IMG/VR virus record: IMGVR_UViG_3300038393_000743
Coordinates: 6,018-70,017 of that record
DNA: 64,000 bases
Origin: a virus
Taxonomy: Duplodnaviria; Caudoviricetes
Direction: 5' to 3' (one strand)
A program made the position numbers and the translations under genes. Below are positions 35,461 through 64,000 of this stretch, piece by piece (the first letter of the stretch is position 1; each line of letters starts with the position of its first letter). The notes beneath the pieces are model-generated. The model was not told the origin of the DNA. It saw only the letters and a program-made list of their open reading frames with translations, and ran no database searches.

Positions 35461-36087
35461 GTGGCCCATCCCTACAAACAGTTCCGGCAGAACAAGGTGC
35501 AGAACGCCCGCGTCGGCGCGCTGACGAAATCCTACGACAACGAAGCGATCGAGGGCGCCTATGCGCCGAACCGCGCCGATCGTCCGATGCGCGCCTCCGG
35601 CGGCAAGGTCGGCAAGAAGGCGACCACCGTCGTCAACGTCATCACCGGCGGCCAGCAACAGCCGCCCGCGCCGCCGCCGATGCCGATGCCGCCACCCGGC
35701 GCGGCGATGCCTCCGCCGCCCCCTCCAGGCCCGCCTCCTGGCGCTGCTCTGCCCCCGGGTGCCGGACCGATGCCCGGTCCCGGTCCCGGCATGCCGCCCG
35801 GCCCCCCGATGCGCGCCCGAGGCGGCGGCGTGAAATCGAAGGGCATGGACGTCGGCACCAAGGTGCAGCACGACAGCGCCAAGGCGGTCGACAAGGCCAA
35901 CATGAACCGCAAGCGCGTCATCACCTTCGCCACGGGCGGCGGCGTGGTGTCGTTCCGCGCCAGCGGCGGCGGCGTCAAGGGCGTCGTCATGAAGGGCGGC
36001 ACGCCCGGCAGCGCCGACCAAGGCAGCAAGCTGCCCGGCGGCGCCGGCGGCGGCAAAGGGCGCCTCGCCAAGGCGCACAAGCGCTGA
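35461..36087 (+). CDS. Pro/Gly-rich basic protein with four (R/F)AxGG motifs (probable internal head protein)
   Basis: AAGGAG RBS, GTG start; RASGG, RARGG, FATGG, RASGG. Confidence 0.8.
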   Translation: MAHPYKQFRQNKVQNARVGALTKSYDNEAIEGAYAPNRADRPMRASGGKVGKKATTVVNVITGGQQQPPAPPPMPMPPPGAAMPPPPPPGPPPGAALPPGAGPMPGPGPGMPPGPPMRARGGGVKSKGMDVGTKVQHDSAKAVDKANMNRKRVITFATGGGVVSFRASGGGVKGVVMKGGTPGSADQGSKLPGGAGGGKGRLAKAHKR

Positions 36088-36314
36088 TGGCGATGATCGA
36101 AAAAGAACCTGTGCGCGAGTTTCGCGGCGATCCCCGCCGGCTCGCGCACAGCGTGCTGCACGAGCTGCAGGCCGCGCGCGAGACCGCAGTGAACGAATTG
36201 GCGACGATCACCTGCGCGACCTTTGAGGAGTACAAGGCGCGCCGCGGCAAGATCGAGGGCCTCGACATCGCGATCAGCGTATGCAAGGAAGTGCAACGTA
36301 AACTTGAGGCTTAG
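36087..36314 (+). CDS. Conserved small head-module protein
   Basis: EEYKARRGKIEGLDIAI motif, upstream of the GroES-like gene. Confidence 0.75.
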   Translation: MAMIEKEPVREFRGDPRRLAHSVLHELQAARETAVNELATITCATFEEYKARRGKIEGLDIAISVCKEVQRKLEA

Positions 36315-36396
36315 TCCTCACGAACCGCCCGATGCCCGGGTGGTGCGACGCAGGGAACGCTACCCAGATGTTCACCGCCACGCAGGCGAGGCGCCC

Positions 36397-36630
36397 GTGA
36401 TCAAGGTCCAGCGCGCGAAGATAGCAGCCATTGAAGACGCGCTCCACGAAGCCGTCATGACGTCAACGTCAATGGCTAACCTAGCGATCAAACATCCGAA
36501 AATTCCGCCTGCGGCTTTGACTGCAGCAGCGATGCTGGCGATCCAGTCCGTCACGATGGCGCTCTATGGCGCCGACGACATCGCCACCCCTTCCGACGTT
36601 CACCACCTCAACATCAGCAAGGACGCCTGA
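36397..36630 (+). CDS. Hypothetical protein
   Basis: GTG start; stop abuts GroES-like ATG. Confidence 0.5.
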   Translation: MIKVQRAKIAAIEDALHEAVMTSTSMANLAIKHPKIPPAALTAAAMLAIQSVTMALYGADDIATPSDVHHLNISKDA

Positions 36631-37044
36631 ATGACCCGCACCAATGCCATGGTGAAGATGCGCGAGATCGCAGAATCATCGACCGACCCGAAGGCCGCGA
36701 TCCTGAAAGCCCTCGGCAAGCACGACACCCAGGTGCTGCATTCCAAGGTGCTGGTGGCGACCTACGTGCGCCCGGCCAAGACCAAGAGCGGCATCTGGCT
36801 CGCCGACAAGACCATCGAAGAGGATCGCTACCAGGGCACGATCTTCCTGGTGGTGGGCATGGGCAAGGGCGCCTTCAAGGACGACAACATCGCGCAGTTC
36901 CACGGCGACGGCCTCAAGATCGGCGACTGGGTGATGGGCGTGGCCGGCGACGGCATCTCGATGTTCATCAACGGGGTGCCGTGCCGGCTGTTCGACGACA
37001 CCCGGATCCTGATGAAGGTGAAAGATCCGGAGTTGTACTTCTGA
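36631..37044 (+). CDS. GroES/Cpn10-like co-chaperonin
   Basis: VLHSKVLV...KTKSGIWLAD mobile-loop-like segment, VVGMGKGAFKD, KIGDWV. Confidence 0.8.
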   Translation: MTRTNAMVKMREIAESSTDPKAAILKALGKHDTQVLHSKVLVATYVRPAKTKSGIWLADKTIEEDRYQGTIFLVVGMGKGAFKDDNIAQFHGDGLKIGDWVMGVAGDGISMFINGVPCRLFDDTRILMKVKDPELYF

Positions 37045-37229
37045 TGCGAAAGCGCGCCTCCAAGCGACGTTTGAAGGCGCGCCTCCTGCTCGGGCGCTGG
37101 ATCGCCCGGGAAGACATCGAAAATTACCGGCTCGACAGAATGATCGCTCGCCGAGGTCTTAACATCGAGGCCCAAGGTTGGGCCGATTACTATCGGAGGG
37201 CCCCATGGCCGGTGAAGACGACGACGTGA
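37044..37229 (+). CDS. Arg-rich hypothetical protein
   Basis: TGATG overlap; MRKRASKRRLKARLLLG... Confidence 0.5.
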   Translation: MRKRASKRRLKARLLLGRWIAREDIENYRLDRMIARRGLNIEAQGWADYYRRAPWPVKTTT

Positions 37230-38206
37230 TTGTGAGTTTGCCCGGTGATACCTCGCAGGTGGTCAAGACCGATGACGTGGTGGTGAAGACCGGCGCCGCC
37301 GAGGTCTCGTTCAACGACGAGGACGGCGGCGACCCGGTCGCGGACCTGAAGAAGCAGTTCACGCAGATGACCGGCGCGCTCAGCACGGTGGTGGCGAGCC
37401 AGCAGCAGACCGAGCAGCAGCTGCGGGAGGCCAACCAGCGCCTGCAGCGCGCCGAATCGCAGGTCACCGTCAGCCAGCTGGAGACCATCGAGAACGGCAT
37501 CGCGCAGATCGACGCCGACACCGAGGCGGCCGAAGCGGCCTATGCCCATGCGTTCGATGCCGGCGACGGCGCGGCGATGGCGCGCGCCAACCGGGCGATG
37601 CAGCAGGCGATCGTCAACCGCGCCAAGCTGGTCGAGGCCCACCAGGATCTGAAGGAGGCGGCCAAGCGCGGTCCGGCCCAGCAGCAGGGCCGGCAGCCGG
37701 TCCGCACCGCGCCGGCGGATCCGGTCGAGGCCGTGATCGCCAACGGCAATGTGTCGCCGAAATCGGCGGCGTGGCTGCGGGCGCACCCGCAGTGCATCAC
37801 CGACCCGAAGCTGAACGCGCGCATGCTGGCGGCACACAATCTAGCGCTGGCCGACGACATCCCGGTCGACAGCGACGAATATTTCGAGCGCATCGAGCAG
37901 GGGATCAAGCCGGTGAAGCAGCAGCAACAGCAGGTCGAGAAGAAGCCCGCAGCCGATGGGCGCCGTCCCAGCTCGGCCGCGGCCGCCGGCGGCGCCACCG
38001 GGGGTGGCCTCAATGGCGGCACCGTCCAGGTCAAGCTCACCAAGGGCGAGGCGGCCTCGGCGACCGACGGCACCTTGGTCTGGAACTGGGATGATCCGGG
38101 CGGGAAGTTCAAGAAGGGTGAGCCGATCGGTCTTGCCGAGATGGCGCGTCGCAAGCACGAGGGCATGAAGGCCGGCCTCTACGACCGTAACAACGTCGAA
38201 GTGTAA
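37205..38206 (+). CDS. Putative capsid scaffolding protein
   Basis: Acidic N-terminus, long coiled coil, position between portal and capsid; GGAGG RBS. Confidence 0.6.
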   Translation: MAGEDDDVIVSLPGDTSQVVKTDDVVVKTGAAEVSFNDEDGGDPVADLKKQFTQMTGALSTVVASQQQTEQQLREANQRLQRAESQVTVSQLETIENGIAQIDADTEAAEAAYAHAFDAGDGAAMARANRAMQQAIVNRAKLVEAHQDLKEAAKRGPAQQQGRQPVRTAPADPVEAVIANGNVSPKSAAWLRAHPQCITDPKLNARMLAAHNLALADDIPVDSDEYFERIEQGIKPVKQQQQQVEKKPAADGRRPSSAAAAGGATGGGLNGGTVQVKLTKGEAASATDGTLVWNWDDPGGKFKKGEPIGLAEMARRKHEGMKAGLYDRNNVEV

Positions 38207-38228
38207 GCCAACGCAGAAGGCGTGCATC

Positions 38229-38966
38229 ATGAGCCTCGTCACCGAGATCCTCACCACCGACCAGATCCACGATCTGTGGGGCGCCGGCTACACCATCGTC
38301 AGGCGCCCCGCCGACCCGTTCGAGGTTGATCCGAAGATCATCCCGCACGGCATGTCCTATCAGTGGAACGACAGCCAGGAGAAGCCCGGCTGGTCGCCGG
38401 TGCTATTCGAGGATCACGACGGGGCGTTCGGACCCTTTGGCATGCGCGGTCCGGTCTACCGCGACAACCTGTTCCTGTGTAAGCGGCCAAAGGCCGAGGC
38501 CGAACACGATCTGGAGCGGGCGCGCACCAAGGCGCAGCAGAACGTCGCCGACTGGGCGTCCAAGAACGCCGCGCTCGGCCTCACCGGCTCCGTCACGGTC
38601 GGCACCCAGACCGCGGTCGGGAAGCTCGATTCGCTGAAGAAAGTGAAGGTCGGCGACCTCGTCGAGATCGATACCGACGAAGGCTTTGCCCAGGTCGGCT
38701 CCACCAAGACCATCGAGACCATTGTCGCGATCCCGCGCGATATGACGCCGCACATCCCGGAGATCTTCAAGGAACGCGATCGGCTGGAGGCCGAGGTGGT
38801 GCGCAAGGACCGCACCCTGGCGCCGGGCCCGATCGCTGATAAGTTCTATGCGGCCGTCGAGGCCGACAAGGGCGCACCCTGGTGGCCCACCCTTCGCGCT
38901 ATCTTGCTGCCGATCGCGGTCGACAACGTGCGCGCCAACCTGAAGAAGGAAACGACCGATGAATGA
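38229..38966 (+). CDS. Head-module protein, paralog of 38959-39669
   Basis: PFEVDPKIIPHGMSYQW...GWSPV...H...LFLCKRP. Confidence 0.75.
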   Translation: MSLVTEILTTDQIHDLWGAGYTIVRRPADPFEVDPKIIPHGMSYQWNDSQEKPGWSPVLFEDHDGAFGPFGMRGPVYRDNLFLCKRPKAEAEHDLERARTKAQQNVADWASKNAALGLTGSVTVGTQTAVGKLDSLKKVKVGDLVEIDTDEGFAQVGSTKTIETIVAIPRDMTPHIPEIFKERDRLEAEVVRKDRTLAPGPIADKFYAAVEADKGAPWWPTLRAILLPIAVDNVRANLKKETTDE

Positions 38967-39669
38967 CGCGATGGACATCGACCAGCCGGCCGTGCGCGCG
39001 CCGAAGAAGAAGCTCACCAAGACCAAGCGCGCCACAGTGGCCGCTCCGCAGCCCAGGAGGGCCGCCCAGGCGACCGCAACGCCGACCCGGGCCAATCCCC
39101 GCCCCGTCCCGCCGCGCTCTGAGGCGGCTCGTGAGGCCGTCCGGGAGAACCCCCGCGAGGGCGCGATCGTCGCGCTCGGCCGTGACGGCGCCCGCCTGAC
39201 CCGCCGTCGCATCGCTAGCGGAGACCCGCTCGACGTGCCGCGCAACGAGATCCCGAAGGGCTGGGACTACCAGTGGAACCCGGTCACGGTGCTCAACAAG
39301 GGCATCAACGAGATCCTGCAGGGCGACCTGCAGATGTACCAGAACGGCTGGCGCCCGGTGCCGGCGGCGCGCCATGCCGGACGCTGGACCCCGGTCGGGT
39401 TCGAGGGCGAGATCGTTGTCGGCGGCCTGCGCCTGGAGGAGCGGCCGTTGTCGCTGTCGCAGGAGGCCCGCGACGAGGACGAGGCGCACGCGCGCGCCCA
39501 GGTCCGCGACCGCACCGACGCGCTGAAGCTGACCCAGAAGCAACTGCCCGGCGCCAGCGTGGCGCGCAGCCGTGGCCATGGCGGCGGCCTCAAGATCGAC
39601 TTCAACGACGACGGCCACGACATCCCGCGGCCCGAGCACGAGATCGATCCGGACAGCGGCGAGTTTTGA
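38959..39669 (+). CDS. Conserved head-module protein
   Basis: PLDVPRNEIPKGWDYQW...GWRPV...H...LRLEERP. Confidence 0.8.
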   Translation: MNDAMDIDQPAVRAPKKKLTKTKRATVAAPQPRRAAQATATPTRANPRPVPPRSEAAREAVRENPREGAIVALGRDGARLTRRRIASGDPLDVPRNEIPKGWDYQWNPVTVLNKGINEILQGDLQMYQNGWRPVPAARHAGRWTPVGFEGEIVVGGLRLEERPLSLSQEARDEDEAHARAQVRDRTDALKLTQKQLPGASVARSRGHGGGLKIDFNDDGHDIPRPEHEIDPDSGEF

Positions 39670-39760
39670 CCCCTTACCGCGCACAAATGCTGATCTTCAT
39701 TGCGGGGCACCATCGATCGGTGCCCCGTAATCGTATCCTCCTGAGATTGGGACACCAAAA

Positions 39761-40477
39761 ATGGCCAAGGTATTCGTCTTCGTCCCGGCGTTCGGCCGGC
39801 AGATCACCACCACCACCTTCGAGACCAGCCACGCGCTGATGGGTGCGCTGATCTCGAAGGGCATTTCGGCGAACATCGCCTCGTTCTCCTGGCCCGACAT
39901 CGAGGAGATCCGCAACATGGTGCTGTCGTTCTGGTACGATGCCATGCCGGACTCGACGCACCTGCTGTTTCTCGATGCCGACGTCGGCTTCCCGCCGCAG
40001 GCCGTGCTCGACATGCTGACCTTCAACGAGCCACTGGTCGGCGGCATCTATCCGAAGAAGTGCTATCCGCTGGAGTGGGTGGCGAGCGGCACCGCGGCGC
40101 CGGAATATCGCCAGGGCTTCATCGAGGTCGACGGCCTTGGCGCCGGCTGCCTGCTGATTCGCCGCGATGCGGTTGCGATGATGCTGGAGAAATTCCCCGA
40201 GCTGGTGCGGCCCTACATGACGATCCCGGACCTGCGCTTTGCCGGTGCCAGCCGCACCTTCGGGTTTTTCGATTGCCTGCGCGTGCCGGAGGGCAAGGTG
40301 AGCGAGGACATCTCGTTCTGCCGCAGATTCCGCGAGGCCGGCGGCAAGGTGTGGGCGACGACGCAGTACACCTTCACGCACGAAGGCCCGCATGCGTTCG
40401 TCGGCTGCTTTGCGCAGGAGCGCGCGATGAAGGCCGGTCTCGACATCGTCACCAAGGCTGGTGAAGCGGCCGAGTGA
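39761..40477 (+). CDS. GT-A fold (GT2-like) glycosyltransferase
   Basis: IRNMVL...THLLFLDADV (DxD), VGGIYPKK, GAGCLLIRR, SEDISFC, THEG. Confidence 0.85.
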   Translation: MAKVFVFVPAFGRQITTTTFETSHALMGALISKGISANIASFSWPDIEEIRNMVLSFWYDAMPDSTHLLFLDADVGFPPQAVLDMLTFNEPLVGGIYPKKCYPLEWVASGTAAPEYRQGFIEVDGLGAGCLLIRRDAVAMMLEKFPELVRPYMTIPDLRFAGASRTFGFFDCLRVPEGKVSEDISFCRRFREAGGKVWATTQYTFTHEGPHAFVGCFAQERAMKAGLDIVTKAGEAAE

Positions 40478-40490
40478 ACGTCACAACATG

Positions 40491-40689
40491 TTGACAGTGT
40501 CGGAACTTTTGCTGTAGGGAAGATTCCGACGCTGAGAACATCAGCAGACGCTGATCCGCCTTAAGGCCTGATCAGTTCGGCAGACGCCCTGCCACGTTAC
40601 CGAGCGCGAGCTGCGGTCGGACCAAACCCAGGCGAACATCCTAGCCATGCGTGCTGTGGAGATGCCTCCGTAACCCGGAGCGATTTCTC
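40491..40689 (+). promoter_or_regulatory. TTGACA-containing promoter region and structured ~200-nt leader of the capsid genes
   Basis: TTGACA at 40491; GTCGGAA/TTCCGAC inverted repeat; 5-bp-stem/5-nt-loop hairpins at 40531, 40579 and 40666 (the last covers the SD). Confidence 0.5.
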
Positions 40690-41322: not shown

Positions 41323-42237
41323 ATGCCTATCGCACTTGCCAGTATCCGGTCCGAGCTGCTGCCGGGACTGTTCGACGTCCGCGGCTCTTACGAGATGATC
41401 CCGCGCCAGTGGGACAAGGTCTTCAAGACCCACAAGTCGGCGATGGCCGTCGAGCGCTCGACCCAGATGGCGTTCGTGGCGCTGCCGTTCCTGAAGGATG
41501 AAGGCGCGGCGACGCAGTTCGACAACAACGCCGGCGAGCGCTTCACCTGGGCGTTCGTGCATATCGAGGTCGCGTTGGGCTACGCGATCACCCGCAAGGC
41601 GATCGACGACAACCTCTACAAGGCCCAGTTCAATCCGACCAACCTGAAGCTCCAGGAAGCGTTCGCGCAGTTCAAGGAGATCCAGGCCGCCAACGTCCTC
41701 AACCTGGGCAACGTCTACAACTCGGCCCAGATCGGCGACGGCAAGGCGCTGTTCGCGACCGACCACCCCTGGGATCAGGGGACCTGGGCCAACACCTCCT
41801 CGACGCCGAAGTCGCTGAACGAATCGAGCCTGCTCGCCGTCATGGCGAACGTGCGCTCGAACTTCGTCAACGAGCGCGGCCTGAAGATCCTGGCCCGCGC
41901 CCGCCGCCTGATCGTCCCGGTCAATCTGCAGCCGGTCGCGATCCGCCTGATGAAGTCGGAGTTGCGGCCCGGCACCGCCGACAACGACGTCAACGCCATC
42001 CTCACGACCTCCGGCGGCCTGCCGGAAGGCTTCCTGGTGATGGACTTCCTGACCTCGAACTATGCGTGGTTCGTCACCACGAACATCGAGGGCCTGATCC
42101 ACATGCTGCGCATTCCCTACGAGAGCGACATGTGGGTCGACAACATCACCGACAACCTGCTGGTCAAGGCCTACGAGCGCTACTCGTTCGGCTACAACGA
42201 CCCGCGCGCGGCCTGGGGCGAGTTCCCGTCCTCGTAA
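41323..42237 (+). CDS. Major capsid protein (HK97-like fold)
   Basis: IRSELLPGL, EVALGYAITRKAIDDNLY, GDGKALF..DHP, ERGLKI, KAYERYSFG; strong codon bias. Confidence 0.9.
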   Translation: MPIALASIRSELLPGLFDVRGSYEMIPRQWDKVFKTHKSAMAVERSTQMAFVALPFLKDEGAATQFDNNAGERFTWAFVHIEVALGYAITRKAIDDNLYKAQFNPTNLKLQEAFAQFKEIQAANVLNLGNVYNSAQIGDGKALFATDHPWDQGTWANTSSTPKSLNESSLLAVMANVRSNFVNERGLKILARARRLIVPVNLQPVAIRLMKSELRPGTADNDVNAILTTSGGLPEGFLVMDFLTSNYAWFVTTNIEGLIHMLRIPYESDMWVDNITDNLLVKAYERYSFGYNDPRAAWGEFPSS

Positions 42238-42809: not shown

Positions 42810-43001
42810 ATGCCCGACAAGGTTTCTGGCAACCCGAACGTCTTCAAGGAAGCCAAGCAGCGCAAGAAGGGCGGCAAGGTTTGTGCGCCCGAGGGCGGCA
42901 TGGCCAAAGCCCGCATGGATCGCCCGCGCCGCGCCAGCGGTGGCGGCGTCGGCGCCGACAAGAACCCGTTCTCCTCGGCGCGCCGCGTCTCGAAGGGCTG
43001 A
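42810..43001 (+). CDS. Small basic protein with RKKGG / RASGG motifs
   Basis: 63 aa, AGGAG RBS. Confidence 0.7.
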   Translation: MPDKVSGNPNVFKEAKQRKKGGKVCAPEGGMAKARMDRPRRASGGGVGADKNPFSSARRVSKG

Positions 43002-43008
43002 CAAGACC

Positions 43009-43209
43009 GTGGCGCGGCTCACGTCAAAGGAGCGCAAGGATCTGCCGGCGAAGGATTTCGCCGGCCCAGACCGCTCCTATCCGATCCCCGACGCGAGCCA
43101 CGCCCGCAACGCGCTTTCCCGGGTCAGCCAGTACGGCTATCCGGAATTGAAGGAAAAGGTTCGGGCTGCTGTCCACCGCAAGTTTCCCGGCATCGGGAAG
43201 GGCGACTGA
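43009..43209 (+). CDS. DUF6582-like small basic protein
   Basis: LTSKERKDLPAKDFAGPDRSYPIPDASHARNALSRVSQ. Confidence 0.7.
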   Translation: MARLTSKERKDLPAKDFAGPDRSYPIPDASHARNALSRVSQYGYPELKEKVRAAVHRKFPGIGKGD

Positions 43210-43549: not shown

Positions 43550-43558
43550 CGGGGCTCC

Positions 43559-44923
43559 ATGAGCGGCGTTCTCCAGCTCAATGACGGCGTCCAGTTCGGC
43601 GACGGCACGCAGATCACCGGCGCCGGCGTGCAGCTGACGTCGACCTCCATGCTGAATGTCCAGGGGGTTACTCTCAGCGGGTCATCGCTTGGCCCCGTGG
43701 GCAGCACGCAGATCGTGGCGTTCGGAACGGCGAACCCGAATACCGTCAGCACGGCCTCGACAGACGCCGGCCGCTGCCGCATGACCCGCACCGTTCACAA
43801 AACCGGCGGGAAGCCTCTCGCTGAACTCCAACTCGCCCACTGCGCTTATTATGTTGACGTCCCCGGGTCGCCGACCGGCCCAACTGCCGGAACGGAAATC
43901 ACGACCAGCAGCTACACGGTAGAGGCGTCGATCGAGATGCCCGGCGCTCCGATCCCCGGGCCGATCCGCGTGACTTATTCCGCGGCCAATGTCGGCACCT
44001 GCCCCGCCGCCGCGGCTCTTTACCTTAGCGATGCAGTGCCGGCATCTGCTTTCGGGCTAACTTACATCCCGGTGGATACGACTTTTTACGTCAAGAACCA
44101 CATGGTCGTGGCACTGAATGCCACTTGGTCAATCAACAACGTCCTGACGTTGCTTTCAGCAAATGGCGAGGATGGTTATGTCTGTCCCAGCGCCTCTGCC
44201 TCGCAGGTCATGACCCCAGGAATCTTCTCGGCGCCATCTGGCGGCTTTACTTCGGCGGTTCGTCCGCCGCTGCTTGCCGTCCTCGGCAAGCCGTATGGCA
44301 GGATGCGCTCGCTGATCATCATGCAGACGAGCATCGCCGAATACCAGAACGATGTCCTCGGCAACGGCCCGACCTCGGGCGGCTTTGCGGCGCGGGCGGC
44401 ATATTCGGTAAAGGGCCATGCGATGCCGTGGGCCAAGCTGGCGCGCGGCGGCTCCGGCTATCAGACGCTCGCCGCTGGCGGGACCAAGCGCGCTGCGCTC
44501 TACCCATACGCCGATACGTTCCTGATGGACGGCCCGACCAACGACGTATTTTACAGCCGCACAGCCGCTCAAATTGAGGCCGATTTGCAGACGATCTGGG
44601 CGCGCATTGTTGCGGCGCGGCCAGATGCAAAGATCGTGATGGCGAACACCCTGCCGCGCACCACGTCAACCGACAGCTGGGCGACGGAGGCCAACCAGAC
44701 GCCGCGCGCCGGCTTCGAACTCAATGGCGTTGCCGACACGGTCAACGTGTGGCTCGCGACGCAGGTGGGATCAAGTATCGTGGCGTTGGCGGATGTCAGG
44801 GCGTCGTGCCGGGGCGTCGATCCGAACAAGTGGTTGCCGGGCAACACGAACGACGGCACGCATCCGACCGGTGCCCTTGCGGGGATGGCTGCGGTCGCCA
44901 ACGCGGCTCTGGCCGCGCTGTAG
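43559..44923 (+). CDS. Virion-associated SGNH/GDSL hydrolase domain protein
   Basis: Block I MQTSIA, block II ARGGSG, block III GPTNDV, block V DGTHP. Confidence 0.75.
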   Translation: MSGVLQLNDGVQFGDGTQITGAGVQLTSTSMLNVQGVTLSGSSLGPVGSTQIVAFGTANPNTVSTASTDAGRCRMTRTVHKTGGKPLAELQLAHCAYYVDVPGSPTGPTAGTEITTSSYTVEASIEMPGAPIPGPIRVTYSAANVGTCPAAAALYLSDAVPASAFGLTYIPVDTTFYVKNHMVVALNATWSINNVLTLLSANGEDGYVCPSASASQVMTPGIFSAPSGGFTSAVRPPLLAVLGKPYGRMRSLIIMQTSIAEYQNDVLGNGPTSGGFAARAAYSVKGHAMPWAKLARGGSGYQTLAAGGTKRAALYPYADTFLMDGPTNDVFYSRTAAQIEADLQTIWARIVAARPDAKIVMANTLPRTTSTDSWATEANQTPRAGFELNGVADTVNVWLATQVGSSIVALADVRASCRGVDPNKWLPGNTNDGTHPTGALAGMAAVANAALAAL

Positions 44924-44945
44924 GCGGAATGGGGGTCACCGGATC

Positions 44946-55272: not shown

Positions 55273-58200
55273 ATGCCGCTCAAGAAGTCATCGTCCCGGG
55301 CGGCCTTCGTCAGCAACCTGAGGACGGAATTAAAGGCCGGTAAGGCGAAGGATCAGGCCCTCGCCATCGCCTATGCGGTGAAGCGGCGCAGCCGCGCCGA
55401 GGGCGGCGAGGTCTCGTTCGACGACCGCTTCACCGGCGAGCCCTACCGCGAGACCGCCGACGACATCGCCGCGCGCGCCCGCAACCTCGTGCGCAGCCAG
55501 CCGCAAAGGATGGAGCGCGTCGTCCCTGACGTCACGCAGGAGCTGGGAGGCCCGCTGATCGGCGATGGCGGCCAGTTCTCGCCCGGCACCGCCTGGGGCA
55601 ACAAAGCCGCTGACATCGGCTCCAGGCTCGTCAAGGGCATGGGCGAGGGCATCGTGCACGACCTCTCGGTGCCCGGCGCCGGGATGAAGCCGAACCCGTA
55701 CCCGGAAGGCTCGGAGGAGTGGCACTGGTACAACGACCAGCTGCAGCAGGCGGCGACGCAGTGGGGCCCCTCGATGGCGCTCAACACGGTCGGCACCGGC
55801 CTGCCGTTCGCGCAGCCGGGGGCTGCTGGAATTTTTGGTGGACGCCTCGCCCAGACTGCCGATCACGCCGCGCTGGCGCGTGCCGAGAAGATGCACGCCG
55901 AAGGCGCGGCGCCCCAGCAGATCCATGCTGAAACCGGGTGGTTCCAGGGCGCCGACGGTAAGTGGCGATTCGAGATCAATGACAAGAACGCCGACTTCCC
56001 GGCGGGTTATCCAACCGACCGCAATATCGCGGCGTCGGTTGGTGCCTTCGAGCACCCGGAGCTGTACAAGGCCTATCCGGATCTGGCGAAAAGCGACCTG
56101 AACGTGCTGCCGCTCGAAGGTTTCAATGGTTCCTATCGCGCGCCATCCCCGGCGACGCCCGGCGACCTGATCCCGCCGCCGCGGGAGGCTATCAATCTGA
56201 ACCAGACCCCGGATCGGCTGCAGGCGCGATCGACCATGCTGCACGAGTTGCAGCATGCCGTGCAGCAGCGCGAGGGCTTCTCGCCAGGATCCAATCCGGA
56301 TGCTTGGCGATACGTCGCGCAGCCGGTCGAGGACGCGCGAAAGCTGATTGAGCTGGGATCGCCTTATGAATTTACCAAGGCGGTGGGGCGCCAGCCGCAC
56401 CCGGCCGCGCGTGAACTTGTCGCCCGCTTGACTCCGGAGGAGTTGGCAAAGGTCGAAACCGACCCATATGAGCTGTATCGCCGGGTTGCCGGCGAGGTCG
56501 AGGCGCGCAATGTTCAAAATCGCCGCGATCTATCTGGCGCGTTTCGCAGACTGAAATATCCCCGCGCCGGGGAAGATATTCCCGCTGAAAAGCAGTTGAT
56601 TGGAGCCTCCCATGACCCAGCCGCCCCGACCGCAGACGCCGCCCCCGCTCAACCAGGAGCAGCCGCCGACCCCGCAGCAGTGGGATCCGGAGGAGGAGGG
56701 CCGGGAGGAAATGCGAGCCTATCAGAAGCACAGGCAGCGGCAGCGCGGTGGGCCGGTGAGCGAAAGCCGCTAGAGGGCCTTCCGGGCCCGCTCAAGATTG
56801 GCGATGAGCATTTCGTCCCGGGCCCGATCGGGAAGATCCACGACGTCGCCGAAGACTACATGCGGACGCATCACCCCGATCGTCCCTACACGCCACCGAC
56901 GCGCTATCATCCACTGGATCCAGAGCACTCCAAGGCCATCGCACAGGCCTATGAGGAGATGCAGCACACCCCGAACGACCCGGCCACGCGGGCGTCCTAT
57001 GACGCTCTGATCAAGGAGACAGCGGACCAGTATCAGGCGATCAAGAAGACCGGACTCAAGATCGAGCCCATCCTCCCGGGGATGGAAGATCCGTATGCCG
57101 CGAACCCACGGCTGGCGGCGAAGGACGTCGCGGAAAACAATCATCTGTGGTTCTTCCCGACCGAGAGCGGATTCGGCACGGTTAACAAGATCTCCGACAA
57201 CCCCATGTTGCGCAACACCGGCGAGAAGATCGGCGATCATCCGCTGCTCGCCAATGATATGTTTCGGATAGTTCATGATTACTTCGGCCACCTGAAGGAG
57301 GGCCACGGCTTCCGCGCCGCCGGCGAGGACAATGCGTGGCGCACCCACTCGGCCATGTACAGCGACATCGCGCGGCCGGCGATGACCACCGAGACGCGCG
57401 GCCAGAACTCCTGGGTGAACTACGGCCCGCACGGCGAAAAGAACCGCACGGCCAACGCCGCCGACACCACCTATGCCGACCAGAAGGTCGGGCTGCTGCC
57501 GGAATGGGTGATGCGCGACCGCGGCTCGCCGGCGCCGGTGATGGTCTATCATGGCACCCCGCACTCGTTCGACCGCTTCGACATCTCCAAGATCGGCGCC
57601 GGCGAAGGCAATCAAGCCTACGGCCACGGCCTCTACTTCGCCGGCCACGAGCCGGTCTCGGAGTGGTACCGGCATCAGCTGGCAACGCGCCAGGACCCGC
57701 TGCTGCAAAATTACAAGCTGCAGGACGTCGGCCACGTCATCGGCTCGCACCTGTCCGACTTCGGCGGCGATGCGGCCAAGCTGGCGGCCAAGTATGCCGA
57801 CGAGCGCAACAAGCTGATCGCGAGCGGCGACACCAGCAAGGCGACGTCGAACATGATCGACGAGTACGCGCGCCGGATCGACTACCTCAACAATCCGCAG
57901 CGCGCGACCGGCCACATGTATCAGGTTGGCATGAACGTGAACCCCGAGCACCTGCTCGACTACGACGCGATGTTCGCCAACCAGAGCCCGTACGTCCAGG
58001 GCCGCACCGGCCCGGTGATGGAGCAGAGCATCAAGGAGCAGCTCGCGGCGATCGACCGGCTGCTGGAGAAAGGCGGCACCGGCACGCCGGGCACGCGCTC
58101 GTTCCGGCCCTACACCAGCTTCAAGAAGCAGGATCTCGAAGGCCGCCGGCTGATGCTGGAGCAGGCCGGCCCGAACGCATTCAAGGGCAGCGAGATCTAT

Positions 58201-60438
58201 CAGCGCACCGGGCTGCCGGCGAAGGATCCGAACGAGGCCGCGGTGAACGCTTCGCAGCGGTTGCGCGCGATGGACATCCCGGGCCTGCGCTACAAGGATG
58301 CCGGCTCGCGCGCGCCCGGCCAGCAGGGCTCGCACAATTACGTCATGTTCGGGGACGACATGCTGAAGATCTTGCGCAAATACGGCGTGGTCGGGATCCC
58401 GGCCGCGGGCGTGCTCGGGGCCGATGGTGAGGAGCGCCGCGCCCGCGGTGGCAAGGTCGATCGCGCGATGCGGCTGGCGCGCCGGCGGGCGGAAGGCGGC
58501 GCCGCGTTCGGCGTGCTGTCGCCGGCGGAAGAGGCCGAGCTGCCGGAGGGCGTGCCGGCCAAGGTGATCCGCGGCGCGGCGATGAACTTCGCGACGCTGC
58601 CGAAGCGGGCCTATGAAAGCTCGCAGCGCATGGTCGAGACCGGCGAATACGATCCGGCGCCGATCCTGGAGGCGGCGACGCTGCCGATGGGGACCGGCGC
58701 CATGGCCGGCGCCCGCGCGCTGCCGCGCGAGATGATCGCGGGCTCCGGCCCGGTGCGCCGGCTGGTCGACGACACCGGTTCGGCGATGACCAAGCCAAGC
58801 CGGATCTATGCCGAGCCGGAATATGCCCCGAGCGGCAGCATGATCATCAACAAGGGCGTCGAGAACCCGCCGAACCGTAAGATCCAGACCGTCGCCGATC
58901 CCTATCGGATGATGTTCCCTGGCGTCTATCGCAACCCGCGCATCATCGCCGAGGAAGCGGCCGCGCGCGTCGGCGAGGAAGACCCGGCGATGCAGCGCCT
59001 GTTCGGCGTCACCCGCGGTGATCTGCGCGAGATGGCGCAGGGCCGCATCGGCAACGAGGAGCCAGTGGTGCCGCCGTCGGGCGCGCGGTCGCGCGGATCG
59101 CTCAGCGCGCAGAACATCCAGACCCCGCAGAACACCCAGCGGCTCCAGGACATCCTGGCCGAGGCCGGCCGCCACGAGGGTCTGCGCACCGCCGATGCGT
59201 GGTACATCATGGACCCGGTCTATCGGCGCATGGTCGAGCTGTTCGGGCCCGAGGAGGCCGCGGCGCGCTATCGCCGCCTCAACACGCTGACCGGCATGGC
59301 CTCACCCGGCTCCGACGTCATGACCGAGATTCAGCGCGGCACCGGCGCGCACTGGCTCAACGAGCAGGGCCGGTTCGGCGACTTCCAGAAATATGCCGGC
59401 GTGCCCGAGGCGATGCGGTCGAGCCAGCGCTTCCCGAGCGACATGCGCTACATTGGCGGCCACCCGTATCATCGGACCTCGCAGGGCGATCCGATGGCGA
59501 AATACCTGGAGCACGGCTCGATCCAGAGCGACGCGCCCAAGGTGCCGCTCTATGTCCACGCCTCCGGCGTTCCGGAGACCGGCTTCCAGACCTCGGGCCC
59601 GGTCGGCGACGCGCACTTCTCGCGCGGCGTCGGATTGTCCGATACCCGCAAGGGGCCGACCGATGTCCAGGGCTCGTTCTCCAAACCCGAATACCAGACG
59701 CTGCAGCCGTGGTGGCAGCACGAGGTGGCGGGCGAGGTCGGCCTGGAGAGCGTGCCGGCGCAGGCGCGGCTATGGACCGCGCTGGGGCCGCAGACCGGCG
59801 TCGAGAGCGAACTGGGAGCGCCGAAATTGGAATTGCTGGCGAAGCAGATCATGACGGCGGCGAAGCGCCTGCGGGTTTCGCCGGAGACCGCGCGCGACAT
59901 GGTGCTGTCGGGCAAGGCCGGCGCCGGCGTCCTCGCTGGCGGCATGCTGGCGCCGAGCGCGATCGAGGCGATGCGCGAGCCGCGCGCCGACGGCGGCAAG
60001 GTCTCTAGCGCTTTGGCGCTGGCCCGCAGCGTCAAGCGGGCGCGCGGCGGCAAGGTCCACACCGGCGCGATCATCGGCGACACCGACGGCCGCGCCGACG
60101 AGGTGCCGATGGAGGTGCCGGATGGCGCCTACGTGCTCACCGCCGACCACGTCTCGTCGATGGGCGAGGGCAACACGCTCGGCGGCTTCAAGAAGCTCGA
60201 CCAGATGTTCCCGAAATCGGCGGCCTCGCACCGCGCGCAGAAGATCGTCAAGCGCGCGGCCGGCGGCGCTGTTCCGATCTATGCAGCGGACGGTGAATAC
60301 GTTATCTGTCCGGAAGACATCACCGATCGCTGGGGCGATCTCGAAGCGGGTCACCGCTATCTCGATGCGTGGCAGACCTCGTCACGCAAGGAGCACGTCA
60401 ACACGCTGCGCAACCTCGCGCCGCCAGCCCAGGACTGA
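55273..60438 (+). CDS. Large polyvalent virion protein (LPD23-like, zincin HExxH, second metallo-motif, ART-like modules) punctuated by RAxGG motifs
   Basis: ETGWFQGADGKWRFEI; LHELQHAVQ; VHDYFGH...GEDNAW; VYHGTPHSFDRFD...GLYFA; six RAxGG motifs. Confidence 0.8.
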   Translation: MPLKKSSSRAAFVSNLRTELKAGKAKDQALAIAYAVKRRSRAEGGEVSFDDRFTGEPYRETADDIAARARNLVRSQPQRMERVVPDVTQELGGPLIGDGGQFSPGTAWGNKAADIGSRLVKGMGEGIVHDLSVPGAGMKPNPYPEGSEEWHWYNDQLQQAATQWGPSMALNTVGTGLPFAQPGAAGIFGGRLAQTADHAALARAEKMHAEGAAPQQIHAETGWFQGADGKWRFEINDKNADFPAGYPTDRNIAASVGAFEHPELYKAYPDLAKSDLNVLPLEGFNGSYRAPSPATPGDLIPPPREAINLNQTPDRLQARSTMLHELQHAVQQREGFSPGSNPDAWRYVAQPVEDARKLIELGSPYEFTKAVGRQPHPAARELVARLTPEELAKVETDPYELYRRVAGEVEARNVQNRRDLSGAFRRLKYPRAGEDIPAEKQLIGASHDPAAPTADAAPAQPGAAADPAAVGSGGGGPGGNASLSEAQAAAARWAGERKPLEGLPGPLKIGDEHFVPGPIGKIHDVAEDYMRTHHPDRPYTPPTRYHPLDPEHSKAIAQAYEEMQHTPNDPATRASYDALIKETADQYQAIKKTGLKIEPILPGMEDPYAANPRLAAKDVAENNHLWFFPTESGFGTVNKISDNPMLRNTGEKIGDHPLLANDMFRIVHDYFGHLKEGHGFRAAGEDNAWRTHSAMYSDIARPAMTTETRGQNSWVNYGPHGEKNRTANAADTTYADQKVGLLPEWVMRDRGSPAPVMVYHGTPHSFDRFDISKIGAGEGNQAYGHGLYFAGHEPVSEWYRHQLATRQDPLLQNYKLQDVGHVIGSHLSDFGGDAAKLAAKYADERNKLIASGDTSKATSNMIDEYARRIDYLNNPQRATGHMYQVGMNVNPEHLLDYDAMFANQSPYVQGRTGPVMEQSIKEQLAAIDRLLEKGGTGTPGTRSFRPYTSFKKQDLEGRRLMLEQAGPNAFKGSEIYQRTGLPAKDPNEAAVNASQRLRAMDIPGLRYKDAGSRAPGQQGSHNYVMFGDDMLKILRKYGVVGIPAAGVLGADGEERRARGGKVDRAMRLARRRAEGGAAFGVLSPAEEAELPEGVPAKVIRGAAMNFATLPKRAYESSQRMVETGEYDPAPILEAATLPMGTGAMAGARALPREMIAGSGPVRRLVDDTGSAMTKPSRIYAEPEYAPSGSMIINKGVENPPNRKIQTVADPYRMMFPGVYRNPRIIAEEAAARVGEEDPAMQRLFGVTRGDLREMAQGRIGNEEPVVPPSGARSRGSLSAQNIQTPQNTQRLQDILAEAGRHEGLRTADAWYIMDPVYRRMVELFGPEEAAARYRRLNTLTGMASPGSDVMTEIQRGTGAHWLNEQGRFGDFQKYAGVPEAMRSSQRFPSDMRYIGGHPYHRTSQGDPMAKYLEHGSIQSDAPKVPLYVHASGVPETGFQTSGPVGDAHFSRGVGLSDTRKGPTDVQGSFSKPEYQTLQPWWQHEVAGEVGLESVPAQARLWTALGPQTGVESELGAPKLELLAKQIMTAAKRLRVSPETARDMVLSGKAGAGVLAGGMLAPSAIEAMREPRADGGKVSSALALARSVKRARGGKVHTGAIIGDTDGRADEVPMEVPDGAYVLTADHVSSMGEGNTLGGFKKLDQMFPKSAASHRAQKIVKRAAGGAVPIYAADGEYVICPEDITDRWGDLEAGHRYLDAWQTSSRKEHVNTLRNLAPPAQD

Positions 60439-60441
60439 TCG

Positions 60442-60708
60442 ATGGCAGATGTGGAAGTGGTCTACGTGACCGAACTGGAGGCCTCCGGCTTCCTCAACGG
60501 CGTCATCAACATGGCGTTCTCGACCTACCATTTCATCCCGCAATACGCCCCGGCGGAAGAGGGCGAGGCCGAGGGTCGCCTCGTCATCGCGCCGGCGCCG
60601 CGGATCTCGGCGAACCTGCGGTTCGACCTGCGGCTGGCGCAGATCATGCGCGACCGGCTCAACGATCTGATCGAAGAGAACACCAAGCCAGCGAGGGCTG
60701 CGAATTGA
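60442..60708 (+). CDS. DUF3467-like small protein
   Basis: VYVTE...GVINMAFS...ISANLRFDLRLAQIMRDRL. Confidence 0.5.
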   Translation: MADVEVVYVTELEASGFLNGVINMAFSTYHFIPQYAPAEEGEAEGRLVIAPAPRISANLRFDLRLAQIMRDRLNDLIEENTKPARAAN

Positions 60709-61181
60709 CCCTGGTTACGATCCCGGTCCGAAAGGCCAAACCGCGAGATCGAGAAGCGATCCTCAAAATCTGTCGCCAGAACCACGAGGAGAACGGACAG
60801 TTCTCGCTGGCGATGCCCAAGGTCGAGGCGATGGTCGACAAGGCCTTCGCCAACCAGGGCGCCATCATCGGCGTGGTCGGCCGCGACAAGATCGAAGGCA
60901 TGATCTTTCTGCTGATCGCTCAGTTTTGGTACAGTGAAGACTGGTGCCTCGAAGAAATTCTCAATTACGTGCTGCCGGAGCATCGTCGCTCCACGCATGC
61001 CAAGGACATGATCTCGTTCGCCAAGCGCTGCTCGGACGAGATCGGCATTCCGCTGGTGATCGGCGTCGTCGCCAATGAGCGCACCAAGGCGAAGATGGAG
61101 CTGTACCGGCGTCAGCTCGGCGACCCCTGCGGCGGCTACTTCCTGCACCGCCCCGCACACCCTCTGGTGCAGACCGCCTGA
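60705..61181 (+). CDS. GNAT-fold acetyltransferase-like protein
   Basis: VRKAKPRDREAIL...YVLPEHRRSTHAKDMISFAKR; TTG start with TTGA overlap. Confidence 0.7.
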   Translation: MTLVTIPVRKAKPRDREAILKICRQNHEENGQFSLAMPKVEAMVDKAFANQGAIIGVVGRDKIEGMIFLLIAQFWYSEDWCLEEILNYVLPEHRRSTHAKDMISFAKRCSDEIGIPLVIGVVANERTKAKMELYRRQLGDPCGGYFLHRPAHPLVQTA

Positions 61182-61260
61182 ATTGTGTATGTCGGGGGAT
61201 CATTTACCCCCCGCGCGCGCCGCCCGGGTCTTACGGTCAAGCTGACCGGGATTGAGACCC

Positions 61261-61842
61261 GTGGGCACTATTGTCACAGACCAGCGCGGAATTACCGGCA
61301 CCCAGTTGGCCGAACGTCTTTTTGTGAAGCCAGAGACTGGGGAGATTTTTTATGTTCGTGACGCGCAAAAGCGCGGACGGCGCCTAATCCCTGCAGGTTA
61401 CATCAAGCCCGGCCTCCCCTCCGAGGGGGGTGGCTATCGTATGGTATCGTTCGCCATCGGGTATCGCAGGTACAGGAAGCTGCGCGCCTCTCACATTGTG
61501 TGGGCTTGGGTCCATGGTGAGTGGCCTGACGGCGAGATCGATCACAAGAGCACGAACCGCGCTGACGATTCGATCGACAACTTGCGTCCGGCGTCGACCG
61601 AGCAGAATCGAACAAATCGCAGTATGTCAAAAACACGTTCGTCAGGCTTCAAGTGGGTGACGCGCGGTTCTGGAAACAATTGGGTTGCTCAGATTGAGGC
61701 GCCGAAGTCGATGCAGATCGATGGCAAAAGAAGGGTGCTGTTTAGAAAGCAGTTTCCTACGCCTGAAGAGGCGCATGCGGCTGCATGCGAATTTGCCAAG
61801 GGCTTGCACGGCGAGTGGTTTAACCCCGGCACCGTGAATTGA
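61261..61842 (+). CDS. HNH homing endonuclease with an AP2-like C-terminal domain
   Basis: HIVWAWVHGEWPDGEIDH...NLRPASTEQNRTN...SGFKWV...WVAQI...FPTPEEAHAA; low GC. Confidence 0.88.
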   Translation: MGTIVTDQRGITGTQLAERLFVKPETGEIFYVRDAQKRGRRLIPAGYIKPGLPSEGGGYRMVSFAIGYRRYRKLRASHIVWAWVHGEWPDGEIDHKSTNRADDSIDNLRPASTEQNRTNRSMSKTRSSGFKWVTRGSGNNWVAQIEAPKSMQIDGKRRVLFRKQFPTPEEAHAAACEFAKGLHGEWFNPGTVN

Positions 61843-61854
61843 TGGGAGGCTGTC

Positions 61855-64000
61855 ATCGGCAAGGGTTCCAACACCACCTCCAGCTCCTCGACGTCGTCCG
61901 CTGATCCGCAGGCCGCGCAACTCTATCGCGACATTCTGCAGCGCGCGCAGGGCGTGGCCGCGACGCCATATCAGGCCTACAGCGGCGAGCTGACCGCGCC
62001 GATCAACGCGCAGCAGCAGACCGGCATCGCCGGCATCAACGCCAATGCCAATTTCGCCGCGCCCTACATCCAGCAGGCGGCCGGGCAGGCGACGTCGTCG
62101 AGCGCGCCGATCACGGCCTCGACCATCCAGCAGTACCAGAGCCCGTACACGCAGCAGGTCATCGATGCGACGATGGCGCAGATGTCGCACGACAATCAGG
62201 TCGCCGACGCCAGCCTGCGTGGCAACCAGATCGCGCAGGGCGCGCTCGGCGGCAACGCCACCGGCGTGGCGCGCGGCATCCTGGCCGGGCAGCAGGCGCG
62301 CACCGCGGCCTCGACCACGGCCGACCTCTACAACCGCAGCTACTCCCAGGCGCTCGGCGCCGCGCAGCAGCAGCAGCAGACCGGCCTCGCCGGCGCCAAC
62401 GCGCTCGCGAACTACGGCATCTCGGGCCAGAACGCCGCGCTGACCGGCGCCAACGCCCAGATCGGCGCCGGCACGCTGGAGCAGCAGAACGAGCAGCAGC
62501 GGCTCAATGCGTTCTATCAGCAGTACCAGCAGCAGCAGGCCTACCCCTATCAGCAGACGCAGTGGCTGGCCGGCATCGGCACCGGCGTCGGCTCGAACCT
62601 CGGCGGCACGTCGAGCGGCACCACCACTGGACCGGCGCCGAACTCGACCGGGCAGTGGCTCGGTGCCGGACTGTCGGCGGCGAGCCTGTTCTTGTCGGAC
62701 CGGCGCGCCAAGGAAGACATCGAGCACATCGGCAAGACCAACGATGGCCAGAACATCTATCGCTACCGCTACAAGGGGCAGCCCGGCTACCACATCGGCC
62801 TGATCGCGCAGGAGGTGAAGCAAGATCACCCCGAGGCGGTCGGCCGCGGCGTCGGTGGTCTGCACTATGTCGACATGAAGGGCGCGACCGATGATGCGGT
62901 CGCGCGCGCCTCCGGCGGCGGCGTCGGCGGCGTGCCTTACGAGGGCGTGCAGGGCTGGATTCCGACCATGCAGATCCATGGCGGCTCCGGCGCGCCGCAC
63001 GCCTCGGCGCCGAGCCTGCCGAGCAATCAGGGCTCCGGCTACGACCCGAGCAAGATCGCCTCCGGCATCGTCGGGGTCGGCAAGGGGCTGCAGGGCATGG
63101 ATTGGGGCGGGGCCTACAATGCCGGGTTCGGCAACCTGAGCGGCGATTCGTGGGGTGGCGGCAGCTTCTGGAAGGGCGACGCCTATGGCGGCTCGGCCGC
63201 CGAGCCGCTGTCGGGCCTATCCGCGGAAGACTACGGCTATGCCGCGGGCGGCGGCGTCAGCGCGTTCGACATGCGGCGGCACTATGCCGACGGCGGCGCC
63301 CCGCTGGGCTACGCGCCGGATGACGGTGTCGGCGGCGCCGGTCTCAACGACTGGCTCGGCAACCTGCCGGTGCCTAAGCCCGACCCCGGGCCCACGTTCC
63401 AGGACCGCTGGAGCGAGCGCATCGCGCCGCGCCGCGCCGCCACCGGCGCCCCGGGCGTGGACCCTGGCGCCGGCCTGTCGTTCCGCGACCGCGCCGCGCC
63501 GACCATGGCGGCGATCGAACAGGGCGACTTCGATCCGCAGGGCATCAATTCCACCACCTTCGCCGGCACCCCGGGGATGGAGGCGGCCAACGCCGGTGTC
63601 GTGCCGACGCCGCGACCGCGTCCAGACGACGCTGGGAGCCCCGTTGGGGCGCCTGACGATGACGAGGAGGAAACGGCGCGGTCCGGCGTCGCGGCCGCTG
63701 GGGCGCCCTCTGGGGCCCCGGTAATGGCGTTTGCGCCGGAAGGCCAGCCCGGCGCCTATCGCGGGCTGCCGGATGCGATCCGCCGGCCGAGCGGCGAGGA
63801 GCCCGGCTTCGGCCTCGGGCTGCTGTCGCGGAACGCCCAGACCGGCCTTTTGGCGGCTGGCCTTGGCATGCTGTCGTCGCGCTCGCCGTTCCTCGGCAAC
63901 GTCGTCGGCGAGGGCGGCCAGCAGGGTCTGGCGGCCTATGGCGCCGCCAACGAGGCCGACCGCAAGGCCGCGCTCGAAGCCGAGAAGCTGTCGCGCGAGG
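61855..64000 (+). CDS. DNA ejection / pilot protein with internal S74-like autocleavage domain and AxGG motifs; partial, apparent ATC start
   Basis: Manual translation open from 61855 to the window end: GKGSNTTSSSS...PYQAYSG...YQSPYTQQVID...QAYPYQQ...FLSDRRAKEDI...IGLIAQEV; GGAGG 5 nt before ATC. Confidence 0.85.
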   Translation, partial: MGKGSNTTSSSSTSSADPQAAQLYRDILQRAQGVAATPYQAYSGELTAPINAQQQTGIAGINANANFAAPYIQQAAGQATSSSAPITASTIQQYQSPYTQQVIDATMAQMSHDNQVADASLRGNQIAQGALGGNATGVARGILAGQQARTAASTTADLYNRSYSQALGAAQQQQQTGLAGANALANYGISGQNAALTGANAQIGAGTLEQQNEQQRLNAFYQQYQQQQAYPYQQTQWLAGIGTGVGSNLGGTSSGTTTGPAPNSTGQWLGAGLSAASLFLSDRRAKEDIEHIGKTNDGQNIYRYRYKGQPGYHIGLIAQEVKQDHPEAVGRGVGGLHYVDMKGATDDAVARASGGGVGGVPYEGVQGWIPTMQIHGGSGAPHASAPSLPSNQGSGYDPSKIASGIVGVGKGLQGMDWGGAYNAGFGNLSGDSWGGGSFWKGDAYGGSAAEPLSGLSAEDYGYAAGGGVSAFDMRRHYADGGAPLGYAPDDGVGGAGLNDWLGNLPVPKPDPGPTFQDRWSERIAPRRAATGAPGVDPGAGLSFRDRAAPTMAAIEQGDFDPQGINSTTFAGTPGMEAANAGVVPTPRPRPDDAGSPVGAPDDDEEETARSGVAAAGAPSGAPVMAFAPEGQPGAYRGLPDAIRRPSGEEPGFGLGLLSRNAQTGLLAAGLGMLSSRSPFLGNVVGEGGQQGLAAYGAANEADRKAALEAEKLSRE

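Follow-up and report, generated by a model that had tools for sequence, protein, structure and literature searches.

A conserved [RKYF][AK]xGG junction peptide at module seams of presumptive internal and ejected proteins in a clade of uncultured phages

The DNA analyzed here (the window) is a stretch of 64,000 nucleotides from the IMG/VR virus record IMGVR_UViG_3300038393_000743 and corresponds to positions 6018-70017 of a contig of 70,017 bp (64% GC) from an uncultured, short-tailed phage. The contig ends overlap by ∼155 bp, not perfectly identically, and the genome therefore closes as a circle of ∼69.9 kb. We describe a short peptide motif, with the system-wide consensus [R/K/Y/F]-[A/K]-x-G-G-x-V, that recurs in the late proteins of this phage, whose genes are all located on the plus strand. 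The motif is real, enriched, and conserved as a peptide; it is restricted to presumptive internal or ejected proteins, and it lies at the seams between their modules and at natural gene ends. We regard it as a conserved, clade-wide junction peptide.

The initial annotation, made from the sequence alone, listed 14 copies of [RYF]AxGG in four late open reading frames (ORFs), and each of them was recovered in frame. Four copies (RASGG at 35590, RARGG at 35812, FATGG at 35926, and RASGG at 35956) lie in a Gly/Pro-rich basic protein of 208 amino acids (aa), the gene of which (35461-36087) directly follows the portal gene. A basic 63-aa ORF (42810-43001) contributes one copy, in RRASGGGV (motif copy at 42930), together with the variant RKKGGKV at 42861. 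Six copies (55393, 58438, 58486, 59983, 60037, and 60253) are found in a 1721-aa protein (55273-60438), and three (62905, 63238, and 63283) in a Gly-rich stretch of the ejection protein (phrog_4287). The gene of the latter crosses the contig junction (61954-63999 in the window, continued by L070:1-1147) and, read across it, encodes 1012 aa. The list had overlooked a fifteenth copy, FAIGG at 53144-53158 in the P22 gp10-like nozzle ("stabilization") protein (52997-55042). With 1 copy seen versus 0.13 expected, this match is not significant; it sits in a folded, conserved segment and is probably a chance match outside the motif system. The sixteenth copy, RRADGGKV, is located beyond the window end, at residue 176 of a 918-aa protein encoded by the next gene (L070:1117-3870; genome bases 1117-3873).

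Enrichment was assessed across the entire 70-kb genome (82 heuristic genes) by shuffling each protein separately (2000 rounds). The 16 copies of [RYF]AxGG compare with 2.40 ± 1.52 expected and with a maximum of 9 in the 2000 shuffles, and the strict form RAxGG[KGEA]V was seen 11 times versus 0.018 expected. By protein, the counts were 4 versus 0.066 for the 208-aa protein, 6 versus 0.29 for the 1721-aa protein, and 3 versus 0.30 (P = 0.003) for the ejection protein. R-A-x precedes 12 of the 144 GG sites, and synonymous codons differ among the motif sites.

Relatives were collected by scanning viral contigs with the nozzle protein, which yielded 65 related loci (35-81% identity, 40-65% GC). In the subset of these loci with a placeable nozzle ORF, we counted the form [RKYF][AK]xGG by region and found 69 copies versus 9.0 expected in ORFs downstream of the nozzle (for RAxGG, 33 versus 2.4), 14 versus 7.7 in ORFs upstream of it, and 3 versus 2.8 in the nozzle proteins themselves. 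In the relatives, the motif is thus restricted to the region that follows the nozzle gene. Relatives with a GC content of 44-52% retain the peptide by means of other codons, which, together with the synonymous codon variation within the genome, indicates selection on the peptide and not on the DNA; a repeat at the DNA level is thereby ruled out as an explanation. The closest GenBank record, MW202675, contains many motif copies, and one of its proteins (382 aa) has seven under a looser definition ([RKYF][AKSC]xGG). The motif was not found in phiM5, a LUZ24-like phage with a published particle proteome. The form [FY]AxGG may be common in the tape-measure proteins of siphophages; in the protein of DSL-LC04 that is annotated as tape measure, only two FAxGG copies were seen. 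A literature search found no paper that mentions RAxGG, FAxGG, or YAxGG.

The 1721-aa protein shows how the motif is arranged relative to protein modules. It begins with an N-module (aa 1-40; phrog_2423 match on aa 1-43; the PHROG matches of the 1721-aa protein are to giant proteins) that is closed by a motif at residue 41 (RAEGG, 55393-55407). An LPD23 domain (PF18838; 4.6e-23, aa 187-242), an HExxH block, and an Ala/Pro/Gly linker follow. The HExxH block reads HELQH, and its DUF6782 match, with 19.9 bits, is under the 27-bit cutoff. Next comes cargo that includes an ART-like module (an ART-PolyVal-like segment at aa 754-800; match below the cutoff) and ends in a motif-helix-motif unit (residues 1056/1072; RARGG-KVDRAMRLARR-RAEGG, 58438-58500), close to which, at residue 1037, lies an edge of the block shared with L012. 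After a segment of unknown cargo, a second motif-helix-motif unit (residues 1571/1589; RADGG-KVSSALALARSVK-RARGG, 59983-60051) is situated just upstream of a C-module (60052-60435), which consists of two ∼35-aa repeats with a further motif at residue 1661 (RAAGG, 60253) in the loop before repeat 2. With LPD23, the HELQH block, and the ART-PolyVal-like segment, the protein combines two or more effector-type domains that are unrelated to one another and is therefore a phage polyvalent protein. Between the motifs of each pair lies a basic helix in which the end of the N-module is repeated.

Counterparts in the relatives range from 168 to 1683 aa, and the 1721-aa protein represents an enlarged version of a small carrier (170-240 aa) into which cargo has been inserted between conserved end modules; in this phage, the cargo between the N- and C-modules amounts to ∼1,500 residues. 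The carriers of all relatives start with an N-module of the consensus MPLxKGSSxxxISxNIxExxxGxPxxQAxAxALxxAR, followed by the motif, except for that of L025, which starts directly at the helix-plus-motif unit. In an alignment of the relatives, all complete carriers end in a C-module of two related repeats, HxGPIxSxVxGRTDxxPMxVPxGSYVxPADxxSxxGEGNT (repeat 1) and VPIVAAGGEYVxxPxxVxxxGxGDLxxGHxxLDxFVxxxRxxxIKTLxxLPGP (repeat 2), with the motif between the repeats in 16 of 21 aligned sequences. Minimal carriers consist of nothing but the N-module, RARGGKV, repeat 1, KRASGGKV, and repeat 2.

We modeled the C-terminal part of the 1721-aa protein, a 175-aa fragment with the C-module, with AlphaFold2 (AF2). 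The model has a predicted local distance difference test score (pLDDT) of 79, with values of up to 97, and a predicted template modeling score of 0.66. It predicts a helix between the paired motifs (residues 30-44 of the fragment), in line with the earlier observation that paired motifs surround a short helix similar to the N-terminal one. All three C-terminal motifs are placed in coil (pLDDT, 57-68), and the x-V that follows Gly-Gly enters a predicted strand (residues 120-123, AVPI). A fold search with the C-module gave no Foldseek match at an E value of ≤0.001 (best, 2.0) and a best VIA Z score of 2.9, and sequence searches of the PDB with the giant protein found nothing. The C-module is present in every relative checked, and D63, S82, N88, E129, H148, and D152 of the fragment (full-length positions, +1546) are invariant.

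Comparison of the carrier with its relatives by BLASTP gave block edges at residues 47-51, 1037, and 1559-1595, which adjoin the motifs at residues 41, 1056/1072, and 1571/1589, respectively; for these motifs, the proposal of the initial annotation that the copies fall at domain boundaries holds. In homologs, the motif is also found at the seams of an inorganic-pyrophosphatase (InPase) cassette. In the 918-aa protein, an InPase domain (PF18823; 6.6e-49, aa 30-164) is fused to a phrog_5880 core (aa 193-880). Across the relatives and this phage, the cassette occurs in 12 contexts in three host proteins: at the N terminus of the core ejection protein (this phage, L008, L012, and L042), at the C terminus of the core ejection protein (L018 and L055) or of another large protein (L001), inside the carrier (L035, L036, L053, and L054), and, in L007, with a further 135-aa module fused upstream of InPase. 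All internal seams of the cassette but one have the motif or a close variant (FNTGG, FSRGG, or HASGG), at a distance of ≤27 aa upstream or ≤15 aa downstream; the downstream seam in L007 lies beyond the end of the locus, and the end marker in L055 was not found. Where the cassette is terminal, the motif occurs on the inner side only, that is, one copy downstream of an N-terminal cassette and one copy upstream of a C-terminal cassette. Around the InPase cassette, the motif count thus follows the seam count.

Motif sites also match natural gene ends. Stand-alone N-module proteins of 40-50 aa (phrog_2423 type) have no motif and end in AIAYAVKRR followed by a basic tail, and the point at which they stop is the RAxGG site of the fused forms. 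They occur in many phages, and it follows that the N-module has a function of its own. These proteins are very basic, and the phages that encode them look unrelated in many cases. L069, which was examined for gene fission at the motif because of its stand-alone N-module gene, turned out to be a different type of phage; there, the gene follows three Gly-rich structural genes. At the other kind of seam, the N terminus of the stand-alone InPase-core protein (M-x-L-x-A-x-I-x-E-Q) lies one to two residues past KKRGG of the fused form in L007. That motif counts follow seam counts and that natural termini coincide with motif sites argues for a function at junctions rather than for a general docking tag.

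The remaining motif-bearing proteins differ in type. For the 208-aa protein, more than 424 homologs were found, none of which has a name, and an alignment of 27 sequences shows the motif positions R44 G47 G48, R118 G121 G122, and F156 G159 G160 V162 F165 as invariant; the family is otherwise of low complexity, and the motif positions are among its few invariant columns. A tblastn search with the protein and a PDB search with the family profile both found nothing. The C-terminal end of the 63-aa ORF resembles a His-rich protein of 185 aa with five motifs in relatives (L053 4860 and L066 3208). An ORF in another frame (42883-43209) overlaps the 63-aa ORF, and its C-terminal 60 residues match a DUF6582-like/phrog_16160 domain. 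We judge a frameshift that would join 42810-43001 to the DUF6582-like ORF to be unlikely, as the homologs in relatives share the same GxDxxPF(S/T)SA tail. The ejection protein consists of an N-terminal coiled-coil part, a Peptidase_S74 module (PF13884; 62695-62841, aa 248-296; 2.1e-9, 38 bits versus a 22-bit cutoff), and the Gly-rich stretch with its three motifs. The module has the Ser-Asp-x-Arg-x-Lys context of S74 (FLSDRRAKEDI), and the motif directly after it is conserved in relatives; at least this one internal protein is, as judged by its S74 sequence, likely to cut itself. The module lies in the middle of the protein, while the usual place of S74 is the C terminus.

Taken at its broadest, the motif is likely a shared signal for cutting or docking at the module seams of presumably packaged proteins. 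We tentatively favor the more specific reading that it is a cleavable punctuation peptide of proteins that are packed into the head and ejected, and give it somewhat less than an even chance. Cleavage fits both the strong conservation of the peptide and the tracking of seams, and it has precedents; for these reasons, it is the favored reading. The conserved carrier, the ejection proteins, and the two small basic proteins would be packed into the capsid and ejected with the DNA, and enzymes (InPase, the ART-like module, and the LPD23/HExxH block) would be spliced in as cargo at the motif peptides. One common factor would then recognize the motif and cut at or after Gly-Gly. The products of this cut, namely the N-terminal helix module, the individual cargo domains, and short basic peptides, would be released while the head is being assembled or once the proteins have been ejected. 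The earlier interpretation had been similar, with the ORFs as polyproteins whose effector modules are packaged via the helix and released by a di-Gly protease. Of that proposal, the selected peptide, the presumptive internal proteins, the fusion seams, and the helix repeats are retained, but the genome encodes no known family of head proteases or di-Gly proteases.

The search for a reader of the motif was performed with six-frame Pfam searches of the whole 70-kb genome, in which control genomes behaved as expected. Peptidase_S78 (PF04586), S49 (PF01343), ClpP (PF00574), and Mu-like_Pro (PF10123) had no match at an E value of ≤1, the S77 gp21-like prohead protease (PF03420) had no candidate, and Peptidase_C5 (PF00770) and C48 (PF02902) had no match, with remote homologs beyond sequence detection being possible; it had been noted before that no prohead protease was recognizable, and these results agree. 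The ORFs between portal and capsid contain no Pfam or PHROG protease, save for two weak PHROG matches on the capsid ORF (phrog_4523 and phrog_133; E values of 0.001-0.004). Two viral candidates had been put forward. One was a pair of adjacent paralogs starting at 38229 and 38959 (region 38229-39669), which are related to each other (27% identity over ∼110 aa; E value, 7e-8) and belong to a family with the signature IPxGxxYQW...GWxPV...GLxLxxRP and ∼100 representatives at 50% clustering. The family is unnamed in Pfam and PHROG and matches no fold in the PDB. Among 39 homologs, W46, G65, L83, P169, and D184 are invariant and no Ser, Cys, or His is conserved; the AF2 model (pLDDT, 82.6) had no Foldseek match, and its best VIA match (Z score, 5.0) covers C-terminal helices only. 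With neither a conserved nucleophile nor a protease-like fold match, the paralogs are unlikely to be the protease. The other was the HExxH block, which is not coupled to the motif. The L007 carrier, 73% identical over 1,227 residues, has no HExxH; five of the six motif sites are intact in it, with YEQGG in place of the motif at residue 1056. HExxH is also absent from the late-region ORFs (≥150 aa) of 15 of 17 motif-keeping relatives checked, which rules the block out as a general reader. A candidate reader is the C-module: every relative checked has it along with the motif, and its alignment shows invariant Asp, Ser, Asn, Glu, His, and Asp residues. A host enzyme is just as plausible. That the relatives form a clade of podophages with no recognizable head protease in which a new maturation protease reads a Gly-Gly junction code, and thereby loads and frees enzyme cargo and small basic peptides, seems rather unlikely to us.

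Several observations weigh against cleavage. All seven head-protease and clan-CE families named above give nothing in six frames, and the HExxH block is not coupled to the motif. The assignment of motifs to domain boundaries fails at two places in the 1721-aa protein, as the seam at ∼436-498 is an Ala/Pro/Gly linker without a motif and the motif at 1661 lies within the conserved C-module, between two repeats that the model folds together. Carriers of 168-205 aa that contain no cargo keep both motifs, and in these the Val at +2 runs into the strands HVGPI and PIYAADGEY; motifs that abut predicted strands in cargo-free carriers fit a structural or assembly role as well as they fit cutting. By analogy with P22 and T7, the 304-aa Mu gpT-like capsid protein (41323-42237) and the separate gene for a coiled-coil, scaffold-like protein of 342 aa (37178-38206) suggest head assembly that needs no protease. 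The 63-aa protein would be cut into pieces of ∼20 aa. Finally, the C-module was not found in any cultured phage.

The main rival, and a serious one, is that the motif is not cut at all and serves as an assembly or docking strand, in which a basic or aromatic anchor and a Gly-Gly turn are followed by a short beta strand (x-V-x-hydrophobic) that adds onto a common partner. The portal, the scaffold, the inner capsid surface, or another internal protein could be this partner, the motif proteins would be incorporated together in the head or in one ejection complex, and the 208-aa protein, with several motifs and Pro-rich spacers, would act as multivalent glue. Such a strand requires no protease, and none was found. 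It accords with the limitation of the motif to proteins that are presumably packaged together, with the conserved Val at +2 that begins a predicted strand (AVPI), with the minimal cargo-free carriers, which hold both motifs directly before each C-module repeat, and with the 208-aa family, where three to four invariant motifs are spaced by low-complexity, Pro-rich linkers. However, docking leaves unexplained why motif number tracks seams around InPase and why gene termini lie at motif positions, no partner has been identified, and the motifs are of low confidence in the monomer model. We consider it possible and somewhat less probable than cleavage.

Two further explanations fare worse. The exact exchange of cassettes (InPase, ART-like, and others) among three host proteins at motif-bounded seams would also be expected if the motif were a flexible Gly-Gly linker that persists by cassette recombination at short conserved stretches and has no dedicated reader. 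Arg, Gly, Gly, and Val are, however, invariant in a fast-evolving, low-complexity protein, the motif is kept across 44-65% GC with different codons, which points to selection on the peptide rather than to DNA homology, and it is also found in small proteins and cargo-free carriers, where nothing is swapped. Strong conservation at the peptide level argues against a passive linker, which we regard as improbable. The mobile loop of Escherichia coli GroES reads K-S-A-G-G-I-V-L, and the motif resembles it by position (basic, small, small, G, G, x, V), so that it might mimic this loop and recruit host GroEL. A GroES-like (Cpn10) gene (36631-37044) in the head module of this phage and of MW202675 speaks in favor of such mimicry, as does the ability of the T4 capsid protein N terminus to direct proteins to GroEL, for which a passage of PMC10052503 cites earlier work; of the hydrophobic GroEL-binding triplet I-V-L, however, Val alone is conserved. 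Alternatively, the motif Arg could be the target of an ART module, given the ART-PolyVal-like segment of the 1721-aa protein with its match below the cutoff, but position -3 is often Tyr or Phe, which excludes a general site of Arg modification, and most motif-keeping relatives have no ART module. A chaperonin or modification signal of either kind is highly improbable.

If the motif is a cleavage site, several known systems invite comparison. Cleavage motifs of the T4, phiKZ, and SPN3US type end in Glu (L/I-x-E or S/A/G-x-E). In these phages, head proteases cut ejection proteins at short motifs (PMC10052503), and a short N-terminal element, which in T4 is the capsid-targeting sequence processed by gp21, loads internal proteins together with a short cleavage motif and is then removed (PMC9026906, PMC10052503). 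The present system is similar in having several sites per protein and an element that is common to several internal proteins; unlike the T4 system with its identified S77-type protease, it has the motif [RKYF][AK]xGG and no detectable S77 protease, and cleavage is only proposed. Di-Gly proteases are found in eukaryotic viruses, where clan CE cysteine proteases of adenovirus and African swine fever virus (pS273R) cut at (M/I/L)xGG-x and GG-x, respectively. The likeness extends to Gly-Gly at the presumed P2-P1, a defined P4 residue, a site common to virion-core precursors, and small basic peptides, whereas P4 is Ala or Lys here, P5 is basic or aromatic, and neither C5 nor C48 has a match. In the tail-associated lysin (Tal) of the lactococcal phages TP901-1 and Tuc2009, a Gly-rich peptide at a domain junction is proteolytically processed, and a Gly-to-Arg exchange blocks processing (PMC11409707). 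In contrast to the motif described here, that is a single site in one siphophage tail protein, with the sequence NGGGNSGGGD and without the R-A-x and Val context. Peptidase_S74, an intramolecular chaperone that processes itself, cuts at its own Ser; in the ejection protein, the motif lies outside the S74 module, on its C-terminal side.

Polyvalent proteins have been predicted to be processed, with an MPTase domain assigned to the task and no site motif named (Iyer, Burroughs, Anand, de Souza, and Aravind 2017; PMC5512222). The 1721-aa protein resembles them in uniting LPD23, a zincin-like HExxH block, and an ART-like module in one polypeptide, with InPase in a neighboring protein, in its location among virion genes, and in cargo that varies between close relatives. 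It differs in that the junction peptide is shared with virion proteins that are not polyvalent and persists without an MPTase-like block, and in that fixed N- and C-modules form a small, conserved carrier around the cargo. It is assumed that phages deliver their internal and polyvalent proteins into the host and that these proteins are processed, and few of them have a known loading signal or cutting site. Here, a single phage has five proteins with the same short, sharply defined peptide, which is conserved throughout a large clade of uncultured phages, and the conserved carrier shows where cargo can sit; together, they provide a mutable target for the loading and release of cargo. If the signal were portable, it might serve as a handle for packaging foreign proteins into phage heads.

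The late gene order in which the motif proteins are embedded starts with the large terminase (27643-29463) and the portal gene (32678-35161), followed by the gene of the 208-aa protein. The Cpn10/GroES-like gene, which occupies the same place in MW202675 and has KTKSGIWL as its mobile-loop region, the scaffold-like gene, the two paralogs, and a GT-A-like gene (starting at 39761) lie between it and the capsid gene. SU10-type adaptors and tail fibers are encoded between the capsid gene and the nozzle gene. Among these virion genes, an SGNH/GDSL esterase adjoins a GH16 glycanase (43559-46196), and a tailspike-like ORF of 1055 aa is also present. Between the genes of the 1721-aa carrier and the ejection protein, an HNH endonuclease (phrog_99, 2e-38) and an ORF with weak matches to GNAT-like acetyltransferases are inserted (60369-61842).

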